A stretch of DNA of 64,000 bases. Source: Hydrolagus colliei (taxonomy: Eukaryota). The stretch covers positions 1,054,001-1,118,000 of the forward strand of contig CM068756.1 in assembly GCA_035084275.1 (NCBI GenBank), written 5' to 3'. Position 1 is the stretch's first letter, and every line of letters starts with the position of its first letter. Positions 1,064-58,478 of this stretch are shown here, piece after piece. Both the position numbers and the translations under genes were made by a program. The notes below the pieces were generated by a model that had not been told where the DNA came from, searched no databases, and was given only the letters and a program-made list of their open reading frames with translations.

Positions 1064-1231
1064 CCGTGTTTGGGATTCTTTGAGTTTGTTGTGTAGGAGC
1101 TCAGTCTCAGTTGTCAGTTGTTGGATTGTTTCTTCGTTCACCTCAGTGCTCCTCTTAGTTGAATCCTGAACAATCTGAATAGATGAAAGCTCTTCATTCA
1201 ACTGGCTTATTGTATCTTCACATCGTTTCAC
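1064..1231 (-). CDS. Coiled-coil gene exon (168 nt, phase 0-0): VKRCEDTISQLNEELSSIQIVQDSTKRSTEVNEETIQQLTTETELLHNKLKESQTR
   Basis: Acceptor ttacttattctag|GTG, donor CGG|gtaatg; overlaps ORF 1013..1231(-). Confidence 0.9.
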
Positions 1232-1959
1232 CTAGAATAAGTAATGTTGGAATATACAATTATCAGTTTCTTTCACCAAGAATAGAGGGAATCAATTTGG
1301 GTGCAAAACACACAAAGTTATTTTGGTTGAAACAAATCATAATACGCAAACAGCAAGTGGATTCATCATCATATTTACGCGCACAATAATTCCTTGTTTG
1401 TTGGTTGTGCTGCCGTGTAAAACACCAATAAAAGCGAAGCAAAAAGAGAAGTTCTGTGAAGAGATCAGTGGTCTTTTTGCTTTTTCACCTATTTTGTGGT
1501 TCTCAAGGCTCAAAATATGAGGCCAAACTGAACACACTGTGTATCTGACTCTTCAGCTGATTTTGTAAATTCCTTCAGTTTGGTGCACACTTGCAGTGAA
1601 ATGACATTGCATTGAGTCCAATCACTGCAGCATGTATCATAAAGTCAGTTCCCTCCATACAGAGGCAAACCAGAGATGAGTCTCCAAACGGGATCCTCTC
1701 AAGTTTGGTGGGAGGAAAATCAGTCGTTCTTCACTAAACGTTGCCTCCAGCGGCGTAAACGCCTGACACAAAATCAGTATAAATCAGCACTTTTAATATG
1801 CTTCATGCTATAAAACAGCTAAAGTTGAAAACAACCTAGGAAAAGTATGTTGTGTAGTATTCCCTACTTTAACATCATTGGCTTTGCTCCAGTGACACTT
1901 TGGTTTGGGAGACAAATGCCATTTACATAATTTTTCTCCAGCGAAGTCTAACCGTAGAT

Positions 1960-2590
1960 TGACTTGCAAAGAGAAACAAAGCAACTATGTCTGAAGAATT
2001 TAAAGAAATATTTTCATTTGTCCATTGAAGGGCATGAAGATCAAGATTCAGTGATTGAAACATTGCATTGCAGGAAGAGTTAAGGTTAAGGGCACGGAGG
2101 GCACGCAATATGAAGGAAGGTGATGAATATAGAGTGGAATTAACAGCCAAAAGTGGATAGGGTTGGATTAGTCCAGGGAGTAATTGATAAAGGGGAGGAT
2201 AGAACACAGACCCTTGGAAAGCCACAGTTGATGGGAAAAGAGTTATAGATTAAACCATCAACTGCAAACGGAAAGATGCATTTGAGAGGAACCTATACAG
2301 CTATGAGCATATCATTGATGGAGGAACACAAGATAATGTTTTATTTTGAAGTACACCTTGCAGGGTTTGGTCAGATGGGTTTGAAGATATTCATAGGAAC
2401 ACCAAATAGACGCCAAATTCCAGAGTTGCATAATGCAGAACATTACCAGTCTCAACTGTAGTGCTGCGTCATAACAGAATTAACATAAAGGTTAATTTAA
2501 GTCGTTGCATACGGGACTGCATTTCAGATGGGACGCTTTGCGGTTTTGTAGATCAAAGTTTTGAGTCAGATTAAGTCCCAACCCACAGCA
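1960..2590 (-). mobile_element. Degenerate L2 LINE reverse-transcriptase fragment
   Basis: ORF 1923..2225(-): AFQGSVFYPPLY ~ GVPQGSVLGPLLF; LQWTNENISLNSS ~ WM..N.L.LN..K (L2 ORF2 motifs). Confidence 0.65.
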
Positions 2591-2764
2591 CTCAAAGGAG
2601 ATAATTTTTGTGTAATGATTGCCATTCAATAAATATATCGCTTCTTGTAAATTTAATCCAGATCATTTTGAATCCAATCTATAATGTTTTGGGGAGTAGG
2701 CAAGTATATTGTATTATTGTGTTGATCTGGGGAAGGATAATCTTCCTGCTCACTGATGTAGGTC

Positions 2765-2876
2765 TTTTGCCCATAAATATACCACGAACAGTCAATTCAC
2801 TTTACAATATATTCTGTGAAGCGCTTTGAGATGTCTAGAAAGCGTGAAAAGCACTATATCAAAATGCACAGATTAT
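2765..2876 (+). mobile_element. 3' part of tRNA/Deu-domain SINE
   Basis: cagtcaattcactttacaatatattctgtgaagcgctttgagatgtctagaaagcgtgaaaagcactatatcaaaatgc matches the 3' end of the full copy at 30552-30885. Confidence 0.85.
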
Positions 2877-2955
2877 AGATCTAATCAAAATCAAAATGTA
2901 TTTGAAACTCTGGTTTAATTATTGAATGTCTTTCCATTATCCCGGGAACCTATAT

Positions 2956-3018
2956 TGTGAAACGCTCTGAGACGCTGTCCATCGTGGAGGGCGCCATATA
3001 AATCGAAGTTGTTGTTGT
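2956..3018 (+). mobile_element. L2 LINE 3' tail (second subtype)
   Basis: tgtgaaacgctctgagacgc...cgtggagggcgccatataaatcgaagttgttgttgt matches the tail of the L2 at 20608-20796. Confidence 0.8.
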
Positions 3019-3339
3019 ATCTATTTGCTTTTAAACTAGAAAGTGCCCCAAATATTAAAATTTGTGATCACACTACATCTAAATTCAGATGAAGGGAATC
3101 TGCTTATTAGCCACTTCAATTGATTCCCAGCTAATGACCAAGACCATGATGTGTGCCCCATTTATCTAAACTCCGAACCAGTATCAGTGCAAAATATTTG
3201 CTGAGATATCTGTGGCCTATTTATTTGCTCTTCTCTCAGTTGCAGGATGGACGTTTAAAACTGCAATGCTAGGAGCAGAAAATAACAAGCAAATCTAAAT
3301 GATTAAAAAAAAATGTGTTTAGCTTGTAACAGCAATGAC

Positions 3340-3486
3340 CTCTTCTGCCATCTCCTGATGGCGTGTTCTGTACTCTCGAAGCTGTCTCTCTAGGCTGTGG
3401 ATTGTCTCATCACTGGTCACTTTCACTGCCTCTGTTGATTTAAGCTGCTGATTTAGATGTTCAATCTGCATCTCATGTTGAAAAAT
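3340..3486 (-). CDS. Coiled-coil gene exon (147 nt, phase 0-0): IFQHEMQIEHLNQQLKSTEAVKVTSDETIHSLERQLREYRTRHQEMAEE
   Basis: Acceptor cttcctttcctttcacaatag|ATT, donor GAG|gtcatt (weak); 49 open codons with heptad pattern. Confidence 0.87.
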
Positions 3487-3816
3487 CTATTGTGAAAGGA
3501 AAGGAAGAGAATGTAACAGGCATCATCATTTTTTCTCTCTCTCTAATGGTAAAACACATCCTGAAAAATTAGGGCACAGTATTCCTAATGGATTCAGCTG
3601 CTAGCAATGCAGGAGCATCAACAATAAAGCCTAAAATACATACTGTTCTTTTACAGCTTCTTTTTTTATATAAAAATAGGCAGTTCTGCAATATATTGCT
3701 CTGTCAACCGATATAAGCATTACTGCACATGTGATCTGCAAATATTTTCCATTCCCAAATGGATTCTCTACAATGCATAACATTAACATTCACTGAAATT
3801 AAACAGGTATGCTGTA

Positions 3817-3895
3817 CCAACCAACCAATTAACCAACCAATTCACCAACCGGCCAATCAAGCAAGCAAGCCAGCAATCAACCAACCAATCAATCA
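3817..3895. repeat. Compound tetranucleotide microsatellite (AACC/AAGC/AATC)
   Basis: ccaaccaaccaattaaccaacc...caagcaagcaagc...caatcaatcaa, abutting an L2 tail. Confidence 0.8.
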
Positions 3896-3940
3896 AAATT
3901 ACATTTAAACAGCGCCTTTCATGTCAGGAGGATGTCTCAA
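3896..3940 (-). mobile_element. L2-type LINE 3' tail remnant
   Basis: aaattacatttaaacagcgcctttcatgtcaggaggatgtctcaa. Confidence 0.75.
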
Positions 3941-4101
3941 CAAAAAACATGATCTTTAAAAGTTTTCAGCTCTAAAAGTGATGTGGTGTTTGTAATTGGC
4001 TACATATAAAAAAGATTCTCAATTTATATCATCTCAGAGAACCTTTGGTTTTTTAGTCATGTTATTTTTAATGTTGTTACCATTGACATAGTTGTGGTCA
4101 T

Positions 4102-4168
4102 ACAACAACAACAACAAATTACATTTATAGAGCGCCTTTCACGTCGGGAGGACGTCCCAAGGCGCTGC
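4102..4168 (-). mobile_element. L2-type LINE 3' tail remnant (well preserved)
   Basis: (caa)n-attacatttatagagcgcctttcacgtcgggaggacgtcccaaggcgctg. Confidence 0.85.
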
Positions 4169-4706
4169 ACAGGAGGCATTAACACTCATACAGGTGTTAA
4201 TGAGTTACTGAGAATCGGGTTCTTTGTTTCAGAAGAATGCTTACTTGAAAAATTGTGCCATTGTACATAAACACCCCAAAGATTTTGCTTGAGCCTGTGA
4301 TCTCTCTCTCGTTGAAGAATGGAGATACTTTTATAGCTTAAGCCCTCAAATGAACTAGACAACTTGCTGCATAATTGGAATTGGGTATATTTACATGATG
4401 GTGGCTAGTTGGAATAACTTGATAATGTGAAAATCAGTATCATCTTCAAACACATCGCCTTGGAATTGCATGAAATGTAAAGCAACTCTCTCAATCCCAG
4501 CAGAGATGTAAAATGTCTACAATTTAATCCAATAAATGAATATTTATTATTACTTTACATTTTGGAATTACATTTATTTTCATGGAAACCCAACAGAAAT
4601 CAACTCATTGCGTAGAAATATGCTTCTTCTGGTTCTAAATGTATATACTTTTTGTGTATGTATCAAAATGTAGACCCAGAATTGCAAATCATGCAGAACA
4701 CTTTAC

Positions 4707-4790
4707 CTCTTGTTCAGATGTCTTAGCTTTGTCTTGCAGGGCAATGCTTTCCATTTTCAGCTTGTGAATCAAACTTTCCTTTATATTCAA
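4707..4790 (-). CDS. Coiled-coil gene exon (84 nt, phase 0-0): LNIKESLIHKLKMESIALQDKAKTSEQE
   Basis: Acceptor ttttttttctccag|TTG, donor GAG|gtaaag; 28 open codons. Confidence 0.88.
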
Positions 4791-6108
4791 CTGGAGAAAA
4801 AAAGGGCTTCATTAATTTTTTATATATACTGTATTTAGCAAAAATGGTGACATGACCCTTTTCTAGGATTCTCTCATGATGTGGTGTTATATCACAACAA
4901 AGGTTTTCCATTTCCTTTGATTCTTTTCCAATACAAACAAGTTGCATGTTTGAAAATTACAAAATCAATGACTGAACGGAAATCCACAAGAAAGGAAATG
5001 GCTTGTTTGCTTATGTCAAAATCTTTACTCTTATTTGGTATCACGGGTCAGAAATACAATCACTGACTTTATAGGGGACAAATTGTGATTTGCTAATTAT
5101 ATTCGATCTGATATTTTCCATCAAGTTACAGTGTTTGTAACATGGCTGCATATGTACATGGATTTAATTGAATTTTATTTGCAAACAGTTTTTTTTCTCT
5201 CCTATTTTTCACTCTCAGTTTCTACTGCCATGCACCTTTTCCACCTGTCTCTTGATAACAATAAAATTAGTGCCTTGAAACCTATGTTAGAATTGGAGTG
5301 TGGATGACCTTTTTGAATCTCCTTCTGAATTGACAATTATACTGCTCTTGGGAGTTCCATATTAAATCAGATATCTCTGTGAACTCCAATTCGATTAGAA
5401 ATGAGTCTTCAATTTGAGCCATGTCCCTTTGCTCCAAGCTCTATCATATTTGAAAGTATTCTTCATATCAAATTTAAAAAACTTCTCACAATTCACAAAG
5501 ATGGGTTGCCAAAATTGGATTACAAAGTTAGTTAGCAAAGTCATTACTGTCAACGCCAATGCCAAAAAAGCACACAAATCAAATCTCTTTGCATTTGTAG
5601 AATATAAGGTTAATAAGCAATCCTAGTTAATGCTAAAGGACAAAAAAATTGAAAATGAACTTTTGAAATCAATTTGTAAAAAATCAACCAACTTGTTAAC
5701 ATACAGTCTTACAGTTGTAACAAAAAATCATTTTAATGCAAAGTAATTTTTCACAGGAAGCCAAGGACTTCTGAAATAGAGTTCAGAAGTTTTTCATCCA
5801 AACTAATCGTGTGATTTGTGAATGGAAAAAAGAGCTAAAGCTAATGTACATAGATGGGTCATGTAACACAGATCATGCACTACAATGTTTTGAAGGGAAA
5901 TTATTCATTGATTTTCCTGTGTTGTGGACTAACCTGTTCATTATTGTGAACATGATGAACAGATTGCACGCCACAATATTTTCCAGCGGTTATGTGGCAT
6001 TTTCAGATAAATTTACACATTGTCTACAGCGAAGTGAAAATGAGATATGATGCACAGATTATAACATGTGTAATTCTACATAGAGGTTTTGAACAAAAGG
6101 GGACTGAC

Positions 6109-6267
6109 CTCCATTGACACAACATTCTGCTCACTTTCCATAGCTAAGTTCACAGCCTCCAGTTGTACGTGAAGCTGTTCATTTTCTTCTACCAATTCAT
6201 GGCAGTGTTGCTGCAGTCGGGCTCTTTCTTCCTTAAGCTGTTTGATTGTCTGCTCAAGTTTTATCAT
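6109..6267 (-). CDS. Coiled-coil gene exon (159 nt, phase 0-0): MIKLEQTIKQLKEERARLQQHCHELVEENEQLHVQLEAVNLAMESEQNVVSME
   Basis: Acceptor tctttatttgtacag|ATG, donor GAG|gtcagt; overlaps ORF 6076..6267(-). Confidence 0.9.
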
Positions 6268-7599
6268 CTGTACAAATAAAGATACACAATATAAATCTTC
6301 CTAATTGACATAAATAAACAAAGCCTTCATTTGATTTACATCACAGGAACAAAAGCACTGACTTAAATACTCTTGGCTTTAAAACATCAAAACCATTACT
6401 GATCAACATGTGTGCTAGATTAGGTGCCTTTGCTTTTTGTAATGTGACCCCAAGTAAATAAAATGCAATAACTGGTTAACATTTCCTCTGAGCAATGGAT
6501 TATGGAGTCCATTGGAAAACAGACATTGGAAGGACAAGAATTTTGATGTTCTATGGACATTGCCAGCTGATATTGAAGTCACTCTGGAATACAACGGGCA
6601 ATTATCATTCGAAGATTTGTATAAGTAGACTGTAACCTAATTAATATACAGCACATTAAAACTTGCAAAACATGTCTACCAGTCATATGATGTAATTTTT
6701 TTCTTGCTATTGAACAAAGGGGTTTTATATTTTGGACTGATGTGAGTGTACACACAAGGGAGCATTGAAAGCAGTGTGCTGACAAGACTAAGTAAATGCG
6801 CTTGAAGTCAATTGCAATATATGAAAATGACATTGTGTACATGAAGTAGAACAACAGACACTGATGGAATTGAAAGCAATAACAGAATCTGAACTAAGAT
6901 AATAAATTACTTGAACTTTGTTCTTGTGGTTTTATGTCTCCACGTGAACTCCTGATTGCGTTGTTATAACTCCACCACCCACCCCCCTGCCCAGCTCCCA
7001 CTCCAGATATCCATTGTTCAATAACATGTATCAAATAAAATACAAATAGGTGAATGAGGGCATTTGGATAGTCGAACTGCAGTTATACAGCATTATGCTA
7101 TTTGTTATTTAATTCTGTTCGCCTGCAATTCAAACATTGCAATCAACTTTAATCCTTTGCAACATCATTATAAATGGATTTCATAGTCTGAGCAATGTTG
7201 TGCTTGCAGAAAATATTTTCTGCATCAAAGATTGCCAATCACCAAAAATTGTGTTCACTTTGGCCCATTTGATCTTCCAGAATACCCACCCTACCCTAAT
7301 ACATTTGCTATCACTTTTAGTATCTTAAATACCTCTGGAAAGCTCATTTTGAGACATCTATTTTCATGGCTTTCAAGGCACCTATCTTACCAAGTAATTT
7401 CTCATAGTTTATCTCACCAATACTGGGAGATCACCCATGTTGCTTTTCTCTGGCCCTAGAGATTAAGCCAGTCACTTGTTCCAAATGAGTGGAGATTGAG
7501 TATGTTTGAGTATGACTGTTCTGTTCTTCTAGTTTTGTTGCCTCACACTGGACACCAAATTGTTGCAAATCAATTAGAAGAACAATTTGTCCAAGTTGT

Positions 7600-7960
7600 A
7601 ATTTAGTGTTGTGACAAATGCTCCAACATTCCAGACGACGTTGACTTTTCACAGTGCCGTAACATACAGCGCATCGGGTTTATTTGACGTGTGCTCTTTG
7701 GAGTCGCATTTATATTCCTTTCTCGTCAATTTAACCTGTTGATTGCTAATTTCCAGTTATGTACACTCTTGAGTGGTTTGGATAAATAGAAGTGTGTTTA
7801 TATTTAGATCTCGGCACACTAAGTGAAGTGCTCGATTTATCATCAATTATTTTTCTTTTTACTTCTGAAAGGTTTTCATCCAAAGATGAGGACGTGCGCA
7901 AAGGCAACAAGCATCTTGCGGCAGAGATCAACCTAATCACGAAAGTTGTTAACACTTAAA
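7600..7960. promoter_or_regulatory. Candidate conserved non-coding element (enhancer-like)
   Basis: Non-repetitive, with many retained CpGs in an AT-rich background and TAAT/TTTAT/TGATTG motifs. Conservation not tested. Confidence 0.4.
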
Positions 7961-8254
7961 GTGCCAGAGATGACTTATCCAGACACAATCTCTCCTAGGG
8001 GAGTAGAGGGACAGGAATAGATAGGTTTACTTGTTCATAATTTTGACTTCCTGATTTAATGCAATATTCCCATCAAAATTTGGCCATGTCCACAGCGTAA
8101 TGGTCAGACACAACTTTGTTAGTGAGGAAAGAAAGAGGAGTCTGATGGTGAACAGTTATGGTGCATTAATACAAAGCAATGCTTAAGTGACCTCACATTT
8201 TGAGCTCCCAATTTCAGCGAAGCTGCTGAAATTTGATATGAAGGGAAACTGGAA

Positions 8255-8519
8255 GAAAAGCTGTGCTTGTCTAATTTGGTAAATGGATGTGGTAAGTAAT
8301 TTTTTTCAAACCTATGAGAGGTTAGAGCATGCAATGCTCTACCAAAAACTGTGATTGAAGTAGAATCCATAATACTGAATTTTTCCAAAGGGAACTTGAA
8401 TAAAGAAAGATACACAATTACTTGGGAAAAAGGCAGGATAGTGGTGAGACAAGATGGATAGCTCTTTTAGAAAGCTAGCCAAGACTTAATGGTTCTGTGC
8501 TTTAGAATTCTAGGATTCT
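8255..8519 (+). mobile_element. CR1-type LINE 3' fragment
   Basis: gcaatgctctaccaaaaactgtgattgaagtagaatccata ~ WN.LP..V.EA.S; 3' UTR ggatagctcttttagaaagctagcc ends in attctaggattct. Confidence 0.6.
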
Positions 8520-10510
8520 TCGACGTCTCTGACAGATTCAAGAGCCAGAAAGATCCGAGGATGAGGTACAGTAGTTGCTAACGCTGTCAATTACAGAATG
8601 CTGGATTACAAGGAGTGTTGAGTAAAGATGATCATTCTTCTGCCAAAAATTATATGTTCCAGTTGGCATTATGCCTTTTATCAGCAATTGAATAAATAAC
8701 ATAATGATATTATGTTCTACACTGTTCTTGGATGGTGGATGACTGTTGTCATATGCAAGTTGATATCTGATATAAAAACTTCAAAACAATTGGGAAAATA
8801 TGAATTTAAATGATATGTATGAAAGTCCACATAGGGTTAATGTTTCTTTAAAATCAAGAAAGCAAAATAAACAGTCTAAGGTAGGTCAAATACCACATTT
8901 TTAATGCAGGCAGAAGATTGTCCAATGAGACTGAATTTTTTTTCTTGTATGATTTGCAGTGAAAGCTTGCCAGCGAACTGTCAATCCTCTGTAGATCTGC
9001 TCAGCAATCAAACAGAATAACCTAATAGTCATAAAACTACAGGAAAATTGAGGCACTGATTCACATTTTAATATCTGTAATTTCTGTAAGAGCTGTATTT
9101 TTGAATACCAAATCACAATTTCTGTCAAATGACAGTGCAATATTTCTCAATTGTATTTATTGCATCTGAATTTGCAGGCTCATATGCAAGTCATATTACT
9201 CTATGGACTCCCTAAAGATTAAAAAAAAATAAAGTTGCTGCCCTTCCCTCAAAGAATTCAAGCTAGAGGAAGCTTCCCACAGTGTCCATATTTTCTGTGT
9301 ATTCCCTAGTCTCAGACATCAAAGAATCATATTCCATCAATAATAATATAAAATAGTGAACAAAGAATACAAAGTAGATAGCAATGTAGTGACAATGTTT
9401 ATTGGGGTCAGGAATCAGACTAACTGAACAATATTAGAATACGGTTCTGAGAAGACAACATTTCTGGATATCAATAGACCACAGAAAAACTATGATTTAT
9501 TCTTGATAGGTAATATTTTCATTAGGAAGAACTTCCTGCTGCTAAAATGCAAGAGCAATTGCACTGAATCACATATCTTAGTTATCACCCATTCTGCATC
9601 AATCAAAAATAAATTCTCTCTCTCAGACTCGCCCCATGCATTTTTTAAAATTTCAATGGAGCAGCCGTCACTGACTGCTCCTCGTCACCCTCCATTCAGT
9701 AGCAACACATAATCTTCACCACGATTACTTAGCAAAAAGTGGGAGGCTCAAAACTCCACCAATTCCTAACCCCCACCAAGACCATTTTCTCTTGCAATGA
9801 AACCGTGCAAAAGTATGGAAGTTTCTAAAAGGTTACCTTAAATTGGAAGTCTGTACCTGCAGTGCTTAAAAAGGCATCCAAATTAGAGTTGAATTTAAGA
9901 AAAATATTTTGTACAACCTAAAGTTTAAAATAGAGCGGTCTTACGACAAAAATGTTTATTCCTTGATCCACACCTTTACACTATTTAATTTCAAATAGAC
10001 TGAAATTATTCAATATATTTAACGTAAATATGATTTTGTCCTGTTTTTGTTTGGTGTCACTAATCATCTCTGGTCAAGAGCGCTGATGGGTGACCTGTCC
10101 CAGACTGTGCCAACATTATGAAATTGCCACCAGGAGGTGCATAGGAGCAGCTTGAGATGACTTGCCCTCATTCATTGTTGCATAAATAATTAAGCAATGC
10201 TTAATCATGCCTCACCACCAGCCTGGTCAAGATCCATGTGGAAGAAGGTGATGAGAAAAGTGATCCTGTCCGTGTTTCTCTACAATCTGCTTGAGATCTC
10301 ATGAGATGTCCCACACATCTGTAGTTTTCCTTCGTGACTCTTTATTTCATCTCCCAGGAGTTATTAATTAAATCCGAATGCCAACAAAAGGAATTCTTCC
10401 TGGCCTCAAATCCCCGGGGTTGATACAATAACTCCCCTCTCTCTCGACTGACTAGATTTTTGGTAAATACATAATCTGGGATGATAAATAGAAAACACAA
10501 TCGTGTTTGA

Positions 10511-17792: not shown

Positions 17793-18082
17793 TCACTCGC
17801 CTTGCAAGCAAGAAACCTGGGTTAGATTCCCGGCAGGGCAAAATCTTGCGCAAGTTTCCTTACTCCACAAGCCTGATAATAATCCCTCAAGAAAAAAAGC
17901 AATAATAAATTGGCCACTTCAATGAACGACTGCTTTGTGGGAACACTGGTGTTTGCAACTGGCTGCCGCATTCCGCCCACAAATATACAGTAAATTTACT
18001 TTGCACTATATGCTGTGAAGCGCTTTGAGACATCTAGAAGACGTGAAAAGCGCTTTATCAAATGCAAGGATTATTATTTATT
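17793..18082 (+). mobile_element. tRNA/Deu-domain SINE, slightly 5'-truncated
   Basis: B-box-like gggttagattccc, caagtttccttactcc, Deu core actggctgccgc, tail tgtgaagcgctttgagac...aatgcaaggattatt. Confidence 0.9.
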
Positions 18083-30885: not shown

Positions 30886-32026
30886 AAAAATCTACTTAAC
30901 ATATCAGCCATGTCATGTCTTCCTAACCTAATCCATAATGGACCCATTTAGTTTGCAGCTCTCAATTTACTGCTGTATATTTTAAAAAATGGTGGCCACT
31001 TATTGCTACAAAAGATCTGCTTTTGTGTTACTCCTTTTCTTTTGTACCCTTGTTTTTTTAAAAAAATATATATACATATAAGACCACCACAATACACTAC
31101 GTTTGGGTTCCTGGTACCCTTTGAAATACATTTATTTTTGCATTCCACACTGTAGATAATATTTATGGACTTTACACCTGAATTCCGCAGCAGTCCCCAA
31201 ACTGTGTCAGAATAAAGCACAAGTGGAGGAAGCATTTCGAAAAGTGTAATTATTATTACTACAATAAAGAACGAGAAATACTAATCAAAGAAGCAGTTGT
31301 ATTTCAAAGCATATTTTAAAAGTTGAGATAGACAGTATAACCAAAACAAAGACTAAGCCACAGCTTCGACTCCAATGATGCCCTGTAAAGTAAATGTTCG
31401 GATGTGCATTTCCCAATGTTAGATACAATTTATGAGACAAATCTCATCTGTGAAAGCACCCGAGGCGGAAGGGATCAACTTCCCTACAATCAGCAAACCG
31501 CGAACGTGATATATTTACTGATAAATTTTGTTCTATAATCACAAATCTAAAGTGTGCATTGAGACTCATGCACAAAATGTCACATTTACCGGTAAATGTA
31601 AAAGCTACAAATATCTGTTTTTCTTCCCCTGTCGTCCATCGTCATAATTGCAGTATCACAAAGCATCCAGTTGGTGGCTCTCTTTGACTATGTGTCCCAG
31701 ATTTACTTCATTCTATTATACTGCATAATTCCAAAATGGCAGCTGTAGAAATTTACAGTGCTTACCAGACATTAAAACTGACTCACAGTGCAATGACTGT
31801 CTGGCACGGAGATCAGACCAGACAGCTAGACAAGACGAGTGCAAAGCATTAACAGTTATCAGAATACATGAAAAACCTTTGTTCCATTGGATACTCAATT
31901 ATTTCCAGTTCTACTGCAATAAAAAGGAAAGGCTAAATCCACCCACAATGATTATAAATGATAATGTACGATTTTGCATTTGCTACGTGCAATCTGCTAT
32001 TCCAATTGCCATTTTATTATTCATAC

Positions 32027-32110
32027 CTCGTTCTCTGCAAACGTACATTTGGTTTTCAGGGTTTCTATTTCAGCTTGCACCCCTTTGAGCTGCGACTTGG
32101 TCTCTTCTGC
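32027..32110 (-). CDS. Coiled-coil gene exon (84 nt, phase 0-0): AEETKSQLKGVQAEIETLKTKCTFAENE
   Basis: Acceptor ttttcatcttttcag|GCA, donor GAG|gtatga; 28 open codons. Confidence 0.85.
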
Positions 32111-37936: not shown

Positions 37937-38149
37937 CCATTGGCTGGTGTTCTGCAGTTGTGCCTTTAGTTTTTCTGTGGTATCATCTTTTCGACGGAGT
38001 TCAGCCTGTGTTTCTGCAAGGTTCTGCTCAAGCTCTTCTGTTGTAGATACTAGTTCTTTGTGCTTCTCTGCTGCTTCAGCAGTAAATGCTGCATTCACGT
38101 TTGTGGCAGACAATTCAAGGCTCTGAATGGTGCCTGTGAGTTCTTCAAT
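37937..38149 (-). CDS. Coiled-coil gene exon (213 nt, phase 0-0): IEELTGTIQSLELSATNVNAAFTAEAAEKHKELVSTTEELEQNLAETQAELRRKDDTTEKLKAQLQNTSQW
   Basis: Acceptor tttttctcttaacag|ATT, donor TGG|gtgaga; overlaps ORF 37916..38113(-). Confidence 0.9.
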
Positions 38150-39548: not shown

Positions 39549-39632
39549 CTCTGTATTTTGTTCCAATTTATAGACTTTCAGGGTCTGGTTCTCAGCTTTA
39601 ACTTGGGATAGAAATCCATTACTCTCTGCAAG
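39549..39632 (-). CDS. Coiled-coil gene exon (84 nt, phase 0-0, GC donor): LAESNGFLSQVKAENQTLKVYKLEQNTE
   Basis: Acceptor caatttaatcttag|CTT, non-canonical donor GAG|gcaaga. Same length as the exon at 32027-32110 and 9/28 identical to it without gaps. Confidence 0.7.
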
Positions 39633-42669: not shown

Positions 42670-42816
42670 CTGCTTTTGGGCCTCCTCATACTGATTTCTG
42701 GTTGCGAGCAGCTCCCTTTGCAGCTGCTGGAGACAGTCCTGCTTTTTCTCCAGTTCAGTTACTCCCTGTTTTCGTTCTCCTTCCAGCTGGTAAATCCTTT
42801 GCTCCTGTATGTCCAA
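42670..42816 (-). CDS. Coiled-coil gene exon (147 nt, phase 0-0): LDIQEQRIYQLEGERKQGVTELEKKQDCLQQLQRELLATRNQYEEAQKQ
   Basis: Acceptor gttgttggtag|TTG, strong donor CAG|gtaagg; 49 open codons with heptad pattern. Confidence 0.88.
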
Positions 42817-43129
42817 CTACCAACAACTACATTGAAAATTCTAGATACCAAAATGTTACTTCTATTATCGCAATGCTCGAGTAAATTTTTAAAAAAGGCA
42901 AACGAAAACATTGGCAGAATCACAAATACTTTATATTATGAGGCTGTGCTCAAGTCCTCAGGAAGCCAATATGGTGGCAGTGAGCAACAAAGCCAATACT
43001 ATTGATGTCCCTTACACTCTGGATTTAAATCAGCCTAATCCATTTAGCCCTCGCAAATACATTTCTCTCTTGTAAATCATTTTTTCCCCCAAGAAATAAA
43101 GATAGAATTGAAAAGATTTAAAATACCTC

Positions 43130-43650
43130 ACATGTTAGCCTATCCCTCTTCTCCTGTAACTGGAGGACCTCTTTACGGAGATGCAGTATTGTACCATCAC
43201 GTCGCTCGAGCTGCAAAAGAGTTTACATTTTAAGAAAGAATCCATGAATGTCAACCAATGAGCAATTAGGCAGACAAGACAAGCTATTGATCTGCTAAGA
43301 AAACCCACTGCTGCAGCCATACAGCTAAACAAGGTCCCATTTCCCCAGCTCTGCATTGAAAGGTAGCTCTTCATTACCATCTGCCCTTTATTGATCACTG
43401 TTAAGTATTGCAAAACCTGACTGAATCCACAAAAATCGAGCAGAAGGCTACAGCAAGCAAGTCAATGGCCTCTTCATTTTGACAAAAGAAATGAATGAAG
43501 CCACAAACCTCTGCTGAAAAAACTGAACATGATCCGTTGATCAATCTCACTGAGCAACAATCTCTCATAGCACTAAAGCAATACAATACAACACAAATTA
43601 ACAGGCAAGCATTAGGCTAAAGGGGTTGTATAGCTCAGACGCATGCAAAA
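43130..43650. promoter_or_regulatory. Candidate conserved non-coding element
   Basis: Unique, higher-GC block with caattag, tttattgat, tgatcaat and aattaa motifs. Conservation not tested. Confidence 0.35.
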
Positions 43651-44273: not shown

Positions 44274-44389
44274 ATAGTGCACCTTCTATGAATATACAAG
44301 GCTGTAGTTTGTTGCTTGTTGCCCCAAATGTGAAATTGTTTGCTATGAAACAAAATAGTATATTAAACCTAAAAGCAGTTCTCTGATGA

Positions 44390-46450: not shown

Positions 46451-46525
46451 CTCAACCTTCAGTAGATTGTTGGATCGGAATGACTGAACCTGGCTTTCTT
46501 GAAGGGCTTTGTGGGGGCTCCCAAA
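46451..46525 (-). CDS. Candidate (uncertain) 75-nt phase 0-0 exon: FGSPHKALQESQVQSFRSNNLLKVE
   Basis: Good acceptor ttttattttcacag|TTT and donor GAG|gtaaaa, frame-preserving. However, it is not coiled-coil-like and not a heptad multiple. Confidence 0.35.
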
Positions 46526-48118: not shown

Positions 48119-51100
48119 AATAAAGAAGAATCAATCTAATGTTACTAGATCATACTTTAACTTCCATTTATTGAAATAAGAGTTCGGGTATCAACTGAAA
48201 ATAATAATTATTTTCTTTCCAGTTTTGACCAATAGATATAAATCTCTACAATTCAAATAGAATATAGTAATTTCTCTACTCATTTAAAAATGGAAGAGCT
48301 GTTGCGATTCCTTTGAGAGTCAAACTGCTTGGGTTTCAAAGAGTATAACAGAGCACAATTGATTGTTGTCTGAAGCTTCCAGACTATAACAATCAATCTC
48401 ACACTCAGTCACGTTTATAGAACTAAACAAGTTGTTTCTGCAGTACAATGCAAATATTATGGTAAGATGAAAGTCCCAAGCAAAAATAATAGAGAGAAAT
48501 AATACAATTATTTAATACCTATTTTTAGCATTAATAAAGGCAAACATTACCACTGTAGTAAACATCTCTTTTGAATTGGTAAAGTATTTTCCACCTACAT
48601 ACTGAAAACAGACATTGAGGGTGTTTCAATGAAAACATGGCCTGATAGGTTTTAAGGAGATATCTTAATATTTACACCAGCCTGTCCATTGCAGAAGTAG
48701 AATATTTTAATTTAACTCGTGAATGGTTATAAAAATGACAAATGATCCATTTAATGAATGTTAAAACTCCAAGAACACAATACCTGCATTACTTTTACAA
48801 ATCAATGATGCTAAAAACAAAGGACAGCACAAACACAAAACACAGTGCATGTGCAGTATCCATTTTCAAAGTCCTGCTGTACATTGTCTATTTCTAACAG
48901 TACCTGCAAAAGCACTGATGCAGTGAACAAGACCCAGGTGGCTTATAGATCATTTACCTTTAATTACTATCTATGTAGTGTCCTGAGGCTATGGTCTGCA
49001 GCAAATCAATAGTACAGCAGCTACGATTAGAGCCCTGTGCTGATTGCTGAATCCACCTTCACACACACAACATGCATTTGTGCTAAGTGAGGCATTCAAA
49101 CCTCCTTCACTGGTAAATGTTTATACCCCATTTCAATGCATCTAAATTTGGCAGAGCTTAATTATTCATAAGTGCTGCTGCAGCAGTGTTATTTTTAAAT
49201 TAAAATGAAAGAGAGGCATCTAGGACTTTCAGGTCAGCCGTGGTTATGTAAAGCTAACATTGCGCATCCTCATATAAAATGCTGATGTCAAGTCACTGCA
49301 CACATCTCTCTTACTCTCCTGTGATCAAAGACGATTGCTGAGGCAATTACCAAGAAAAATCACCACATCATTTCATTTCTCCGCTGCCTATCTTTAATTG
49401 CTTAATGCAGCTTTCACTGTCGCCATCTTCTTTGGTCTGTGTCTCTGCCTTGCCCTAAACCACGTATAAGAATAATTAAAATTAAGCTTACATATGAAAC
49501 CCATGAAATGAATAAGCCGGAAAATAATTTTTCCTCACTGCAATTTGACCAGTGTGTTCTGTTAAGAGCTAATTTCAAGACTGCAAAACCATCATAAAAA
49601 TGGAAAATGCTGAACAACAGAATCAGCAGGAAACTGGACATTTTTGTGCTGCAGTGGTCGTATGACTAAATTAATGCAAAAGACAGACATGCACTACAGA
49701 GCATAGTCGAGTGGAGGGGTGGTGGGATGGGGGTGGGGGGGGTGGGGGTGGGTGGGAGGAGAAGAAGGAGAAGAGAAGAGAGCGTTGTTATATCTATCGT
49801 TGGCAATTTAGAGATTCAGACATTTCATCTGTGATTCCATCATCTGTCAAATTTAAAAGCAGCAGCAGAAGCAGCAGTCAGAATTCTTCCCACTGAAACA
49901 ATCTCATACAGCAAAGCTCATAACATAAAGTCACAGGATTGCAAAATTAATAAAAACTAGACTTTGTTGTAAAAATTATAATTTTTAAGAGATAAAGCAT
50001 CACAACAGGGGTTTAGCTGAAATTATGTATTGTTTTGCAGTTGAGCGATCAAAATGTAGCATCGATGCTCCAAATCATTTTTTGTTCTTACCCTGAAACT
50101 TTGCACCACCAGTGAAAGCAAGTTGTTTACGATTAGCATCATGACTGACATAAATTATCGCAGGGATTTTTAGAGGCTGTCAACATTCTCTTATGAATCA
50201 CAACAAAGTGCAGTCATTTAACAAGAAAATCAGGAGCACAATGGATGTGGTTTGCTGATCTTTATTTTGTAATGATGTAGTAGGTATTTAAGATATTTTC
50301 TTTCTGATTTATGCTACATTTTAAAGCAACAAATAACTACACAAATCTCTCTCAAAAACAGGCATCACAATGTCCTTGATATTAGCGCAATTTCTATTTA
50401 AATTTAAGGATAATAATGGATTTTCAGCTTTCAACAATGCCGCCCACTAAAACAATATTACACAAAATTATTTTCTTCCGTGTTAGAATATTGACGAAGA
50501 TTATTTTGTAGCAGCTGGATGAAATCCAGACTAGTGTTCTGCAAAGTGTTGCACAGTACTGAATAACAATTCCTACATAAGGGTTAAAATAAATGTATTC
50601 AGACTCAGCTTTAGTGAAGAAATCAACCATTATATCTACATGCCCTTAAAAACTGAGTGTAGTGTATAGATTTAATTTTAAAATAAACTGCATTGGGATG
50701 TTTGAAAAGACTGGTGCAGTTTAATAAACTAGCTCCACCATCAATGGTTTATGACAGGTTTGATTGATTGACTGTCCAGGGCAGGATAAAATGGATAGAA
50801 GCTATTTCTTTCACCAGCATGCAATGCCTGGGTTTAAATGCATTAGCAAGGTCTTATGTACAAGTTAAATAACATCCAAAATATATATTTCATTAGGCTA
50901 AGTTCCAGCAGAGTAATGCCATTACCTTTTCTTTTAATCATTAATAAGCTAGAGATAAAGCTATGTTTTAAATGAATGATCAAATAAACAATGCAATTAT
51001 GATTCTCAAGTATTTTGCCGAAAATCACAAGTGTAAGGGTTAACATAAATATAGTTAGCCATCAGCTTTACTGCTGAAATCAAACACATCTATATACAGT

Positions 51101-51236
51101 ATACTGTACATTGCAAATATATCTTTACAGAATATTAGATTTTTTTTTAAAAAAATCAATTGGGAGACTTTTCATAGATTCAGTTGCACGATCCAAGTCA
51201 TTTATACAAAATGACCACACAGACTACCAGCAACCA

Positions 51237-51620
51237 GCCTGGCTCAGTTGGAGGCATTCTCTTTGGGTCAGAAAGTTGTGGGGTTCAAGCCCTGCACTGA
51301 TTGGGGCTTGAGCTCATAGTATAGGCTGAAACTCTGGTGCAATTCTGAGATTATGTCTGACTATTCAGGTGAATGTTAAAAGATCCCATGGCACTATTTA
51401 TAAAGAGAAAAGTTTCTCCCAGTGCCCTCGTCAGAAATCCCAGTTACAATTTGTCATTCATTCCATGTTTGGGGGACATTAATTTGTGCAAATTGGCTGC
51501 TGTATTTCCCTAAAAATATACATACATACAGCCATTACACTTTATGCTAAATTCTCTAAAGCATTTCGAGCTGTTTCAATGCTGTGATCAAGTCCTGTGT
51601 TGCAAGGATTCTTATTATTA
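51237..51620 (+). mobile_element. Older tRNA/Deu-domain SINE (SacSINE1-like)
   Basis: Head tggctcagttgg...gggttcaagccc; body aaaagatcccatggcactattt; core tgtgcaaattggctgctg; tail gcaaggattcttatta. Confidence 0.8.
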
Positions 51621-54600
51621 CAAGTTGTAATTCATTACCAAAATCAATGGAATTCTCACTATGCATTCTCCCAATGTCAAAAGTTTAAGTCCCCTGGTTA
51701 GTTGTCACTTGATCTCACTTGTCTCAGCTGTACAAGTTTCACCAGGTCTGAAATCAACCTCGGCTATTATGAAAAGGGAGATATTCAACCTCAAGGAAGA
51801 AAAATTGACAACTTGCTCCTTCCTTGTTATTTATTCATTATACAATTTATGACGATTTTTCAAGAGATTTAAAAAGTTTTATTTTTAAAAAAATTGGTGT
51901 ACCAATGCTATCAGCATTACCCCATGCATCTAGAAATGGCATCATTAAATAATAAGAAGAGTATTAATGTTAGCCACAATCAGTTTACCACCTCAAATGG
52001 GAGAATTCCACAATCATCAAACATTCAAATGAATTTCACATTCATCCCCGTTATCCTCTGAAAAGCTCGGTTTCTGTTTGAGAACATTACACGCTTTTAA
52101 AATTCACACCCTTGGAAATTTTCCTAATCGAGTCACGTTCCTGAATGTGTGAAAAATCTCAACCATGATTGGAAAACACCAGAAGCCCTTGGTGGGAACC
52201 CGTGACTTAAGTCATTCGGATGATCTCCCAGCTGTTGCTGATCAAACAACGCATTAGTCACCCATGCAATGATAGAGTTTGGGTGGATTCTGATCCTTTG
52301 TTGCCACAAAATAAATTATGAAAACAGAGGTGAGGAATATGAGAGAGAGAGGGGGGGAGTGGGGGGTGGAGTGATAAGTAAGTAAGATAAACAGATAGAA
52401 TTGAAGGATTGGAAGAACAAGAGGAAAGTGAGAACTGAGGGTAGCATGAAATTAGGTCAATTGTGAAGAACAAAATAGAACAAAGTAAAATGTTAAGGTA
52501 TAGACCTATTTCCCCCTACAACCTAATACCTTTCTTGTCCGGAGCTCAAACTGCAATGTTGTTCTCAATGGCTATTTCCTTTTTATCCAGCAACGTTTTC
52601 TCCAATCATGAGTGAGAATGGCTGTCTCAGAAATGGTTACAAAGCAACAGACTCTTTGAGGGGTTTTAGCTGACAATATAAAGCACAAGAGTACAGATAG
52701 ACTGAACCATTTACAGCTGCAGTTTGAACAATTAACTTGATCACAGTGGTGACATTATTCAAGAGTACACTTTTTAAGATTATACAACAAAATGACATGT
52801 GTATGTACCATGGCATGTGCACCACATATGCCTTATGTTTTGGATTTCTTGAAAATCTGGAAATATACCTTGTAATGTATTACAATAATCCCAACCTGGT
52901 TAATTTGTAACTGATTTGAAGATTTATCCATCAATATAAAAATCAATATTCTGCTGGCAAACCATCGTACATCCAATGCACATCATTTTTACACTATGGT
53001 GTTGATAAATGCAGATGTGTAAAACAATTTAGTGGTTAAAGAGTGTAAAAACAATCAAACTGTGTACACTATTCTTGCAGCTCACAGTTCTCTTCATTTC
53101 TTGGCCCACCTAGTTATTCTCTGTCTCCATCTCCTTTGGCCTTTCTGCCTGAATTAGGGTCTCTATTCTAATACCAATAATGGCACTGGGCTGAGCTGAG
53201 AACCCACACATTAACAGCACAGCTCATGCTTGAAAGCCCCATCAAGAGGAAATTAGCATTAAATACCAGCCGTTAGGACCTGAACATGATTAAACTATTG
53301 CTAAGCCAACCCTTGTCAATTCCACCCTGAAGCAAAACATTTTCAGGGAATTCAATAAATCACAGCAATCTTTTAGACTCTGAAATGCCAAAAACCTCCT
53401 TTTTTTTTACATTAAACATATAGACGCAATATTCTCAGTGTTTAAGGTTTCAATAGCATTCATCTTTTTTCATTTTATGCTACTAGGCTTGAATATGAAA
53501 TTTTAAAAAGAGTATCGTATTTCAGCTTCAACACAGATTGTGCATTTGTTTGTTAATCCATATCTCAATTTCAAAGCGAGAACCCACGAAAGCATGCAAT
53601 TAACTCTTAAGTTTTGCTTTAATAAATGATGCAGATCAGGTAACATAAGAACACAAATAATGCTTCTCTAAACATGATATTTATTAGCTGTACAACAGAA
53701 ACAGAAAATAGCTGGGCTTAAAAAGCACCAATGTTAAAATGAATGCAGTACACTACCTCCTAGTAATCATCAAGGTTGCTTTTTCATTTCCAGTCTTACT
53801 CTGGCCCTCAAATCAAGTAAGCTTCTAAATATTTATAACCACAATTCTTACGAGGGTAGACAGTAATCTGTAGCAGAACCTGTCTGCATACATTGTAAAA
53901 TGTTCTGTCACCTCGGCAGGGTAGCTTGCCTTCGAGGTTTATGCTTTTGCCAAGAGCACAGAGGGGTGCTAATGAATTTATACTGGACATCTTTAAAATG
54001 CTTCTAATTTTTTTTACAAAAAAGAAAAATTCAACACAACTCGCACTTCAGGCTCCTCCGTACAATAGAAATCGCTATGATGATGACAGTTAAAATAACC
54101 AGATGAGAATACAATTTGTCACTGCCATTATGTGGTAACACCATGCTGTGATTTCCTCACCAGCCTCTTCCCTGAATCTTTAACTCCTTAGGGAAATGTA
54201 TAAATAAAGGTGTGGATGGGAGAAGATAACGTGGTTCTTAATGAAAATGAACTCGAGACTGACTACATTGAGGTCACAACATAAAAATCTCATACTCCCA
54301 TACCTCCCCTCTCTCCCCCCCCCCCCCCCGCCCCCCTCCTCCCCCCCACCTGAAATGTGCTTAAAAAAAATTCATCTACACTCCCACCCAGGGCAGGTTG
54401 TTCAAAGTGACACATTGGGACATGTCGCATGTGTCAAGTACCGAAGGCTGAAGTACGAGGCAATTTCTGGGAGCAGGAAAGTGTTCTCTTAAAGGAACGT
54501 AGCCATGGCAAATTCAAATGGTCTCTTGATACTGTCACTGAAGAGTAATGACTTGCGCTCAGCTGTACGAGAAGCTAATGTTGTGTGACTGTGCCACCCT

Positions 54601-57395
54601 TCTCAACTCACAACCTCTGCTGAAGCAGCTGATTCCTTTTTTATGCAAAAACCTGCAACTTCTGCATTTCAATTGGCAATGTTATTTAGAAAGGATTCAT
54701 TTTAATTGATTCTACACGTCACTGCAGATATGATACTTTTTATTTACATCTGCACATTTAATTTTTAAATAAAATGCAGCAGAATAAGATTAATGTCATT
54801 TATATTGCAAAACTCACCGGTATAAAACATATGAATCTACTTACTACATGCTATTGTAATCCGCAAACACAGTACAGTACACGTATACAGATTTGGGCAT
54901 TAGATAGCATTTTAATATGCAAGGTGAAACAAATTAGTCTTTTAAAGGATGTCATAATCTCTTGCATTTTGTCGCATTCCATGTTTTTCTTATACAAGGA
55001 TGTAATAAAACATTTCACTCAATATTGTAATAAGGCAATAATGCACTTTGCTCAACAATACAATGCAAAATAAAATAGGTATGCAGAAAATATTGCATTA
55101 AAATCAATAAAATATTATTTTTTATGTTTTTTTTCTGTGGGAACAAATGAATAAACATCAGATATATCTATAAATGCATGAACCTGACTGAAAATATTTA
55201 TCCAAAAGATAAGATAATTTGAATTAAACGCTCTTCACTCTACATAAATTTAACGCATAGCGTGCAAACAATCAGATATTCTCTGCATTGAAGTGTATTT
55301 TTATGTTCTAGATTCTGAATATTTAGCAGGTTATAGGATTATAAACTTACTATAAGATTTTTTGTGTCGGAATAACATTGGTCAACTTATTTCTCCGAGT
55401 ACAATGGATTAAAAAAGAGAAATCACAATAACAATGTTCCAAATTCACCATCACATGCTCTGTAACCTTCGCTTGTTTGAATAAAATGCATTTCCTTCTT
55501 TCTTACGTTCATGCAACAAAAAAGGTCAGCTGTGTAATCTGCTGTTTTCCCCAATTTTATAACAAATTGGTAATTCCTCCTTTGCTAACTGAATAGCATA
55601 TGACGCTGCTATCATTTTCTACCAGGGATAAATTATAAAGCAACATCATCAATGTTTTAAGCCACTATTGCAGAATATTGAACATTAATTCTGTATCTCA
55701 CTGACATTATTTGTTTAATTTGAAGAAATATATGTAGGAATACACCCATTTAAAATTATTTAATCCATTGCATTTATTTAATATAAATACAACTCAAGTT
55801 CTAGCTAACATTTTAATATACTATAAGAAACAATTGTTTTATAGTCCTACCCTCACATTAATACAGCTTGCTCAAATTTGCCTGCTATGTTGCAAATCTA
55901 TTAATTTATAATGAGGTCAAAAAAACTGCATACATGGGGAAACCTATACATCACATGAGTGGGGTCACTGAGGTTTGAGAGTCAGGACAGAGGAAATAAA
56001 CTAACGCAATCATCTTGGAATATTAAACAGGATAGTGTATATTGCCAACCCTTCCATGATTGGCCAAATAGCCTCTCTGGATACATCCTGACTCAATTGT
56101 GACAATTGAAAGATTACAGTCTTGTGGTTAACAGACCAACGAGACTGTTTTCAGGACTCCTTCACAATTTCATAACATAAAAACGTTTCCCATGCACACT
56201 GAAGTAAGCAGAATATGTAAACCAAACATGTTTTACCCACCCTACATTATGTAAAATTTGTGATGATATAATATATCAGCTGGTCTAAACTATTTATTAT
56301 TAAAAATCTTAACATATTACAGTACTAGGTAGGAGGTTAGAAGCCAAGAATATTGGAGAACCCTATTATAACACTCTATTTCGAGTCCATAAATCCAACA
56401 CAACATTAACACGGGGGATAAAAAATGGCTTCCACTAACATTACATCCTTTAAGACGCTCAATTGCGCTGAATGCAATAAGAATGGCTGCCTCAATTTCC
56501 TGTAAGCCCAGCGTATAGGAAAGGCAGCAACTGCATTCAGAGATCCAATGCACAACTCATCATAAGCAAGCTTGCAAAATAGGAAGGTGTATTATAAGTG
56601 GGTCGTGCTATAAATTAAAATGTATTTGAGCTATTTGATTTCTGATAGCTTCTAAAAAAAACTGTTCGACACGTTGCACTTCTTACACCACCCCATGCCT
56701 ATTCTATCAAGGTGAAATGATAAGCATGGCAGACATTGCTTAAAGCAATCTAAAAGACTGATTGTGTGGTTAAGAAATCAAAGTCTTAATTTGGATGCTT
56801 CTGACATGTTATAGACTTCCTAAATCTGATTATGTGGTTTCTTGCATTTATATTCAATAAATAAATTAATGTGGTACATTTACCCAATGAACCATTAAGG
56901 TAGGACTTTGAGCACGTCTTCCAAAGTATTGAAAATGTTTAGAATTTATGTTTTATATATACACACACACAATAAAATGATTTTAACACTGCAGTTTCTG
57001 AATAGTGATACTGTAATTTATATTACTTTGTAAACTGACATGGTTTATCTAAACATCAGGATAAACCACAATTTCTTCCATCATCCCCATATGTCCAGAT
57101 TAAACATTAATTCACAAATGAGAAGCTCAGCAATGACCAAAACGGGTTAGGCTATTTGCTAATTTTACGAAAGCTAATTAAAAACGTAAATTTGCCAGTG
57201 ATAATACTACAGTATATACAGAATGTAAGTAATATCACGTGCCGAATGTTGGCAAAGTTTAATCAAACCGATATGGAAACTTGGTGTTTGGTTCGTCATG
57301 CAATTCTCGTTCCTTCCTGACTGCTCAAGACAAGAATTCACAAGAAGGTACTTCAGGCTGAGGTCACCTCAGTGTTGTTTTTTAACCTCCACTTA

Positions 57396-57461
57396 CAACA
57401 ACAACAACAACATTGCACTTATTTAGCGCCTTTCACGTCGGGAGGACGTCCCAAAGCGCTG
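57396..57461 (-). mobile_element. L2-type LINE 3' tail remnant (well preserved)
   Basis: (caa)n-cattgcacttatttagcgcctttcacgtcgggaggacgtcccaaagcgctg. Confidence 0.85.
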
Positions 57462-58331
57462 AACAGTCAGGTCGGGATACGAATGGAGGTTGGTGGGGGG
57501 TCATATTGTCACCAATTAGTCATTTTGTTACCAATCTTTGCTTTCCCAAACCTCACTCAATTTAGAGTATATCAATATTTTTGTTTGTGGTCAGTATCTG
57601 GAGGTCCAGTCAGATATGTTCAGCTCTGTTAATTGCCCATTGCAACTAACCATGAGAGAGAGAGACCAAACTTGACAACATGTACCGACACCGAAATAAG
57701 AAGATACGATGTGAGCAAGGTCCACTTATACTCCATTAGTGGATTTTGCTCTTATGTTTTCTCTCCACATCTTCTGAAGGAAATGAATTATGGTGGGGTG
57801 AAGCTCCCCAAACATCATCGGCCCTCCATTATCCTGCCTTTGTTGATTCTTCAAGCATGAGCCAGAACAATGAAACCTGCAGTCAATTAAACTTTGACAT
57901 CACAGCCACGCCAAAATTCCCTCTGCTCCTTACATTCATTCATACATAAACTGTTGGGGCTGTCCTGTAGGGGTTGCTGGAGTGCTATCAAGTGCAAGGA
58001 CATTGGCTGATGTTTCTCCTCTGGCCCAGGGGCATTGAAGTTTCAGGCAGTTCAAAATATATAAATGATAATCAGTTATTTATGCCAAACACCAAAAGAT
58101 TAAAAACAATTAGAATGTAACCCCAAAACAACTACAGAAAAAGTTTTGCAAAATTATGAGGCCTTATAACAAAATACTGGAAGGAAAATTTTTAAATATA
58201 ATGAACTGACATATTTTACACCCTAATTAGATCATCCAAACATTATTTGATGTGGAACTGGTCAGAAATTAGTGAGATTAATTTTTTTTGAAACTCGTTA
58301 TAGTACTAAATAGTACTAAAAGAACCAATAC

Positions 58332-58478
58332 CTCTTCATTCAAGGCTTTAATATTGTTCTCCAGAAGGTGGATATCCTGCAGTTGGTTTAGATTCTCCGA
58401 CTCCTTCAGAACCACGTCATTGTGAAGCTCAGTTATGATGTCTTGCAATTCCTGTATTTTCTTATCTTTGCCAACTAC
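58332..58478 (-). CDS. Coiled-coil gene exon (147 nt, phase 0-0): VVGKDKKIQELQDIITELHNDVVLKESENLNQLQDIHLLENNIKALNEE
   Basis: Acceptor ttttgtctgtgttatag|GTA, donor GAG|gtattg; 49 open codons with heptad pattern; absent from the ORF track. Confidence 0.88.

Follow-up and report, generated by a model that had tools for sequence, protein, structure and literature searches.

Heptad-sized exons in a long PMFBP1 gene of the chimaera Hydrolagus colliei as a probable record of ancient tandem exon duplication

A stretch of 64,000 nucleotides (nt) from Hydrolagus colliei (assembly GCA_035084275.1, contig CM068756.1, positions 1,054,001-1,118,000, written here C23:1054001-1118000 and called the window) lies along its entire length, positions 1-64000, inside one minus-strand gene at C23:989564-1158447 which, judged by sequence similarity, is the long form of PMFBP1. 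Its product is predicted to be mostly a coiled-coil rod, and its exons are built to the measure of that coiled coil, with phase-0 borders that cluster between heptad positions g and a and with an excess of lengths that are multiples of 21 nt. This exon-length pattern in PMFBP1 is real and statistically solid, and we think it probable that the exon layout is a fossil, left when an 84-nt exon encoding four heptads was duplicated in tandem long ago. The gene itself is already known, and heptad-sized exon arrays are already known from chicken BG; in the literature, for the most part openly accessible papers without their supplements, we found no description of the exon-heptad layout of PMFBP1.

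Eleven exons, all of phase 0-0, were located in the window, with lengths in transcript order of 147, 75, 84, 147, 84, 213, 84, 159, 84, 147 and 168 nt. They were found by an initial scan for open, coiled-coil-like exons, after which the Callorhinchus milii protein was aligned back onto the window, and it is by homology and splice signals that their junctions were set. The sequencing runs listed included none of RNA, and the one run present probably belongs to the assembly itself. A first-pass annotation of this DNA had proposed nine of these lengths, and all nine were recovered on the minus strand in the claimed order, each with an AG acceptor, a GT or GC donor, an open frame and an alignment to the C. 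milii protein; that annotation gave no coordinates for single exons, and its list was matched to the located exons by order and length. The nine exons are real but the list was incomplete, as homology adds a 75-nt and an 84-nt exon (46525-46451 and 43210-43127), and the former tally of seven multiples of 21 nt among nine exons is corrected to 8/11, all of phase 0-0 (binomial p 1.9e-5 at a 1/7 chance per exon), a stronger pattern than first claimed.

The first exon in transcript order is a rod exon of 147 nt at 58332-58478, seven heptads that start at a and end at g (homology, splice signals and register decoding), and the second is the Pro-containing linker exon of 75 nt at 46451-46525 (21n+12; homology), overlooked by the first-pass annotation, as was the next, the 84-nt rod exon at 43127-43210, which holds one 28-residue unit. 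There follow rod exons of 147 nt at 42670-42816 (seven heptads; scan, homology and register decoding), 84 nt at 39549-39632 (GC donor; homology) and 213 nt at 37937-38149, the last with ten heptads plus one residue, both ends in register and the irregularity internal (homology, decoding and structure model); used as a query, this exon matched a single database protein, a C. milii model, at 83% identity. An 84-nt exon at 32027-32110 (homology) precedes the 159-nt exon at 6109-6267, seven heptads plus four residues, which starts at a and on whose end register the decoder was ambiguous (homology and decoding). The series closes in the window with exons of 84 nt at 4707-4790 and 147 nt at 3340-3486 (both homology and decoding) and of 168 nt at 1064-1231, which comprises two 28-residue units (homology, decoding and unit analysis). 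One might suspect that these exons were chosen by their length, so that the pattern is circular or due to chance: the first-pass annotation concedes that one of its exons was recognized by length, and junctions that rest on homology and splice signals leave room for such a suspicion. We find this hardly credible, for the exon boundaries match the alignment ends to independent database proteins, the borders of indels seen in models from shark, turtle and catfish, and the calls of a scan that was blind to length.

Homology and the length-blind scan, applied to the window and its flanking DNA, placed 39 coding exons, which span about 169 kb and join into 1,830 codons with 0 stops, a lower bound on the protein as the start codon and the final stop lie outside the located exons. 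Downstream of the window the exon lengths are 180, 84, 168, 84, 243, 231, 231, 123, 127, 158, 247, 190 and 154 nt, then five times 168, then 63, 110 and 75 nt and a final open-ended exon. Phase 0 is found in 32 of the 38 introns, and among 28 symmetric exons 20 are multiples of 21 nt and 14 are 84 or 168 nt long, that is, multiples of 84. Because a binomial calculation at 1/7 treats exons as independent, the pattern was also tested against real genes, namely seven coiled-coil genes of the same genome (SYCP1, three myosin II rods, rootletin, CCDC158 and TPR; 153 exons). One blind exon scanner and one filter were applied to the gene, to a paralog on C2 that is described below and to the controls, and some boundaries are miscalled in all sets, three of them in the window; an eighth control, the C201 myosin (1/3 multiples of 21), was excluded as contaminated with repeats. 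Multiples of 21 nt made up 15/23 symmetric exons in the gene, 13/23 in the paralog and 13/69 in the controls, giving Fisher p values against the controls of 1.2e-4 for the gene and 1.0e-3 for the paralog. Rootletin was the best control at 4/13, and one myosin reached 2/7. The four rootletin exons (C18:1630001-1720000) measure 84, 147, 168 and 231 nt, a weaker form of the same trend.

The heptad register was assigned by a seven-state model that was trained on control exons only and decoded exon by exon, and in this way the introns could be mapped onto the register as the first-pass annotation had suggested. The junctions cluster between g and a: phase-0 exons start at position a in 26/32 cases in the gene, 22/26 in the paralog and 26/105 in the controls (p 1e-8), and with one or three terminal residues masked there are still 23/32 such starts (p about 1e-6). 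Phase-0 exons end at g in 22/33 cases gene-wide against 29/101 in the controls, and within the window 10/11 exons start at a and 10/11 end at g. As the junctions lie between g and a, skipping nearly any rod exon would preserve the register. The earlier claim that any window exon could be removed in frame stands, all exons being of phase 0-0, and the register is safer than had been supposed: with junctions between g and a, exons that are not whole heptads keep their irregularity internal, and even removal of the 213- and 159-nt exons would take it along. As for the proposal that these two exons carry a skip and a stutter, the lengths alone are a weak argument, since +1, +3 and +4 are half of the non-zero remainders.

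An AlphaFold model of the C. milii ortholog consists of long helices that are broken at the start of the linker exon, the first half of which is non-helical, and again within the exon of 213 nt; one more break, at 617-629, is perhaps an artefact of folding. The model is of a single chain, with a mean predicted local distance difference test score (pLDDT) of 69.6 and a predicted template modeling score (pTM) of 0.25, and the coiled-coil dimer is a prediction. Given the rise of about 0.15 nm per residue of a coiled coil, the rod of 1,505 residues would be about 220 nm long and each cassette would contribute 4-8 nm.

A unit of 28 residues points to an origin of this layout. The exons begin with a shared motif, in which position 1 is hydrophobic, position 4 is K/R/Q, 5 is E/D, 8 is I/L/V, 11 is L, 14 is E and 15 is L, and the mean BLOSUM similarity from start to start is 9.96 over 21 residues, compared with 2.59 +/- 1.22 for random in-register windows (permutation p 2e-4). 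Within the longer exons the start pattern recurs at offsets 28 (7.0) and 56 (5.2), while similarity to exon starts at offsets 7, 14, 21, 35, 42 and 49 is at most 1.7; the paralog has the same offset pattern, save at offset 49 (6.75, n=2). The autocorrelation at a lag of 28 residues is 0.21, while at the remaining multiples of 7, as far as 63, it ranges from -0.15 to 0.04, and a lag-28 peak above the other heptad lags was present in 6/6 vertebrate rods tested and in 0/3 arthropod rods. The recurrence of the exon-start motif at 28 and 56 residues suggests an ancestral unit of 84 nt. Searches for tandem and direct repeats found no exon-to-exon repeats in the DNA, only dispersed intronic elements.

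The age of the array can be judged from the paralog, which lies at C2:77729351-77913636 (77.73-77.91 Mb), in head-to-head orientation to PEX2 and with a second ZFHX gene close by, a neighborhood that we take to be that of 8q21/ZFHX4; we know of no mammalian gene at its position. This arrangement fits a whole-genome-duplication pair. Its relatives come from shark, manta, eel and herring and were grouped at 100 in a quick tree. In the paralog 25/31 located exons have the same length as their counterpart, a count that is not fully independent because some of the boundaries were set by alignment to the gene studied here. One 168-nt exon of the paralog has no counterpart in this gene, and conversely the counterparts of the 75-, 84+213- and 63-nt exons were sought in the paralog and not found. 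A 264-nt exon of the paralog (C2:77852119-77852382) equals two exons of this gene (127+158 nt) minus exactly one heptad at the 3' end, which is an intron gain or loss together with a 21-nt shift of the donor. As the exon series of the two genes is almost identical and the paralog is also present in bony fish, the array appears to be ancient and nearly frozen. Ongoing duplication or length tuning, which the first-pass annotation had envisaged, is not supported, given this near-identity with an old paralog, the lack of recent DNA repeats and the nature of the changes, which are best read as losses.

In the scenario that we propose, the 28-residue unit would have been copied many times before cartilaginous and bony fishes split. 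Later loss of introns would have merged units, so that 168 nt is 2 x 84 and 231 nt encodes 28+28+21 residues, and some units may have dropped a heptad (63 and 147 nt) or acquired a stutter (159, 180 and 243 nt). Selection on the coiled coil would since then have held the lengths in register, and a rod that lost or skipped one entire exon would be about 4-8 nm shorter, its register unbroken. Lineages would be able to drop cassettes because each of them runs from a to g.

A different account would dispense with exon duplication and have the introns inserted into a pre-existing rod, at AG/G-like sites supplied by Glu, Gln and Lys codons at position g, with selection against splice shifts that break the register completing the pattern. 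Such insertion would agree with the finding that 28/33 phase-0 exons have an E, Q or K codon at their end, with the mild excess of a-starts and g-ends in the controls (26/105 and 29/101) and with the rootletin exons of 84, 147, 168 and 231 nt (4/13). Position e, however, equals g in Glu/Gln richness according to the trained model, and yet 0/33 phase-0 exons end there; the first base is G in just 3/11 window exons; and insertion gives no reason for the exon starts to be confined to one of the four heptads in each 28-residue unit. We consider this account improbable, and we retain tandem duplication as the better account. Several points nevertheless weigh against duplication. The controls themselves show some bias toward starts at a (25% against 14%), the DNA of the units is only distantly alike (49% mean column identity), and the look of common descent could arise from a structural constraint of 28 residues combined with a bias in where introns are placed. 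In myosin rods the lag-28 signal is stronger (0.33-0.51), yet their exons do not lie at the unit borders, and arthropod homologs lack the signal, so that the origin of the unit is not traceable deeper. To the partial dependence of the paralog boundaries must be added that the PMFBP1 sequences compared were all non-mammalian, and that in the quick tree, from which mammals are absent, the group of this gene was not one clade and compositional bias was flagged.

Orthologs, whose exon lengths and counts the first-pass annotation had proposed to compare, differ from each other by whole cassettes. Relative to the X2 model of shark pmfbp1, the rod has eight gaps at exon borders, seven of which are multiples of 7 residues, and those on the shark side of the comparison may be annotation omissions. 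Three shark cassettes of 30, 49 and 56 residues (135 in total) are absent here and from the C. milii models. The minus-strand intervals without them are window 58331-46526, window 32026-6268 and C23:1036821-1046045, the second being the 26-kb intron that follows exon 32110-32027, where shark, coelacanth and turtle models carry a 49-residue cassette. Neither queries from coelacanth, turtle, catfish and shark nor an exon scan with permissive settings revealed remnants of the three cassettes in the introns, where a heavily decayed remnant could escape such searches. The three are likely to be whole-exon losses in chimaeras, going by these sequence comparisons. Single cassettes also vary among models of other species: the counterpart of exon 58478-58332 is missing from one shark isoform model. 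Exon 39632-39549 is absent from the shark models and from the models of one catfish species, possibly as an annotation miss; in this genome a weak in-frame GT donor lies exactly 21 nt downstream of it (39549-39528) and would make an exon of 105 nt, and homology favors 84.

Within species, 15 pairs of isoform models contained 16 internal indels, of which 7 were multiples of 7 residues and 7 ran cleanly from exon start to exon start, among them the one that removes the shark counterpart of exon 58478-58332. The cassettes absent from such models have 28 and 49 residues in shark, 28 in the manta paralog and 54, 56, 58 and 68 in turtle; one turtle indel (X1/X13) was measured as 50 and then as 22 residues and was set aside. 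These isoforms are automatic database models whose underlying read support is not visible, and what they show is that skipping is tolerated in annotation. It could be argued from them that cells skip cassettes deliberately and that isoforms of fixed length set a spacing in the sperm neck, and such a regulated ruler would be served by rod junctions that all tolerate skipping, by the whole cassettes missing from isoform models and by the three shark cassettes that left no intronic trace in this genome. The models are automatic, however, and just 7/16 indels have a length divisible by 7; two old paralogs have kept almost the same exon series, without recent duplicates; in testis, symmetric exons are commonly skipped at a low level; and the passages of a review on PMFBP1 mention no role for its length (PMC12539209). 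We therefore regard a regulated ruler as unlikely. The idea of skipping in the first-pass annotation thus survives in the form of whole-cassette skips in isoform models, while its regulated or structure-linked tuning is unlikely; an ancient duplication history accounts for the pattern, and no ruler is needed.

The layout of PMFBP1 resembles that of the cytoplasmic tails of chicken BG proteins (butyrophilin family), in which modular exons sized in whole heptads likewise encode a coiled coil; these exons are of 21 nt, and their number varies between genes and haplotypes (PMC5938342). Each BG exon is a single heptad whose first codon is split, so that the true heptad extends across two exons (PMC5938342), and the BG array follows an Ig-V domain and a membrane segment. 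The exons of PMFBP1 measure 63-243 nt, are of phase 0, start at a and are based on a four-heptad unit, in an old array that has stayed stable instead of varying rapidly. Pfam lists no immunoglobulin domain for the orthologs scanned, and the gene is not BG. With the myosin II rod PMFBP1 shares a 28-residue periodicity of sequence, and some databases name its homologs 'myosin heavy chain-like'. A charge wave of 28 residues like that of myosin, however, was looked for and not found, charge power at a period of 28 being 1.03 here and 2.2-3.2 in two myosins, and myosin introns lie off the borders of the 28-residue unit, unlike those of PMFBP1. A Myosin_tail_1 search did not include the gene or its paralog among the 44 matches listed (43 of the 125 candidates scored).

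The identity of the gene as PMFBP1 follows from full-length collinear similarity to proteins named pmfbp1 and from its DHX38 and ZFHX neighbors. Alignment with shark pmfbp1 (Chiloscyllium punctatum, XP_072452086.1) covers 1,677 residues at 58% identity, and in BLASTP against the X3 model of shark pmfbp1 this gene scored 1066 bits and the C2 paralog 515. Homologs labeled PMFBP1 are found in turtles, catfish, Arapaima and bamboo shark, and the named turtle and fish models align. An exon of PRP16/DHX38 lies at C23:946.5-946.8 kb on the opposite strand, tail-to-tail with the gene, and just past DHX38 is a gene with a MitMem_reg domain, which we take to be PSMD7; on the upstream side there is a ZFHX3-type zinc finger at C23:1405621. 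This arrangement matches that around human PMFBP1, where DHX38 and ZFHX3 are neighbors as well. Between the last located exon and DHX38, about 40 kb (C23:948000-989500) are unannotated, a stretch that includes the last exon of the gene and its 3' end. We discarded the database labels 'early endosome antigen 1-like', 'plectin', 'trichohyalin' and 'myosin heavy chain-like'; they are automatic, and models of the same gene named pmfbp1, together with synteny, overrule them. In Pfam, single exons gave generic coiled-coil matches below threshold and full-length homologs gave nothing at the cut-off, the ESM Atlas returned generic coiled-coil clusters and nothing more specific, and protein database searches with the gene sequences produced no match named as mammalian.

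PMFBP1 is known in mammals for joining the sperm head to the tail. In mouse and human it is described as a testis-specific, mostly coiled-coil protein that binds CENTLEIN and sits at the head-tail coupling apparatus (PMC8363609, PMC12539209, PMC12901780), and in passages of a review it is a scaffold of undescribed molecular function (PMC12539209). By analogy with mammals the chimaera protein may be a rod-like scaffold at the junction of sperm head and tail. Like the PMFBP1 of that review (PMC12539209), the gene product here is mostly coiled coil; its length is at least 1,830 residues, where PMFBP1 as mapped reaches residue 1023 (PMC8363609), and it carries an N-terminal head motif.

A profile search retrieved arthropod proteins of 1,600-1,900 residues from a mantis shrimp, Penaeus and the beetle Onthophagus. 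Scored with head and tail profiles built from vertebrate segments, 14 sequences each, all three carry both motifs, at 59-79 bits for the head and 26-50 bits for the tail, compared with at most 6 (head) and 9.5 bits (tail) for control coiled coils and reversed sequences; in two more proteins the head motif was significant and the tail fell below significance. The silkworm protein BmPMFBP1 is a testis-expressed coiled-coil protein that is needed for sperm and is the top match of a mammalian PMFBP1 profile, and its authors held an independent origin more plausible, having found no homologue in other insects (PMC8970482). The beetle and crustacean matches, to which this comparison was confined, argue that the PMFBP1 family may be older than assumed. 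One could join all of this into a single reading, in which an ancient bilaterian sperm-neck rod with head and tail motifs gained a vertebrate shaft from the 28-residue cassette and became a spliceable ruler, and in which fishes and reptiles set its length in steps of 4-8 nm by regulated skipping and lineage loss, with the paralog on the PEX2/ZFHX4 side; taken as one claim, this is doubtful.

Some features of the window stand apart from the exon array. Directly after the 84-nt exon at 32027-32110, intronic positions 31855-32007 resemble, in translation, the C-terminus of a Mustelus model (49%, E 7e-5), with stops in this genome; the segment is single-copy among the fetched loci and is likely to be a conserved non-coding element. 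The introns also contain several dispersed repeat families of 40-130 nt, for example at 252-317, 2788-2863 and 17945-18078, which are likely short interspersed elements. An Rfam search of the window gave no match.

If the duplication account is right, PMFBP1 offers a clean, controlled case in which exon borders record the duplication history of a coiled-coil rod, in phase 0, at position a and in units of four heptads, with myosin controls that have an equal period and no such record at their exon borders. The beetle and crustacean motifs make the question of silkworm-mammal PMFBP1 orthology, as raised in PMC8970482, directly testable, and they bear on a remark in the 2025 review that counterparts in other species were unidentified (PMC12539209). 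Skipping or deleting whole exons of the PMFBP1 rod is predicted to keep both frame and register. Should mammals retain the same introns, this prediction would bear on how splice variants are read in a gene of human infertility, and natural length variants are available for asking whether the rod sets the geometry of the sperm neck.

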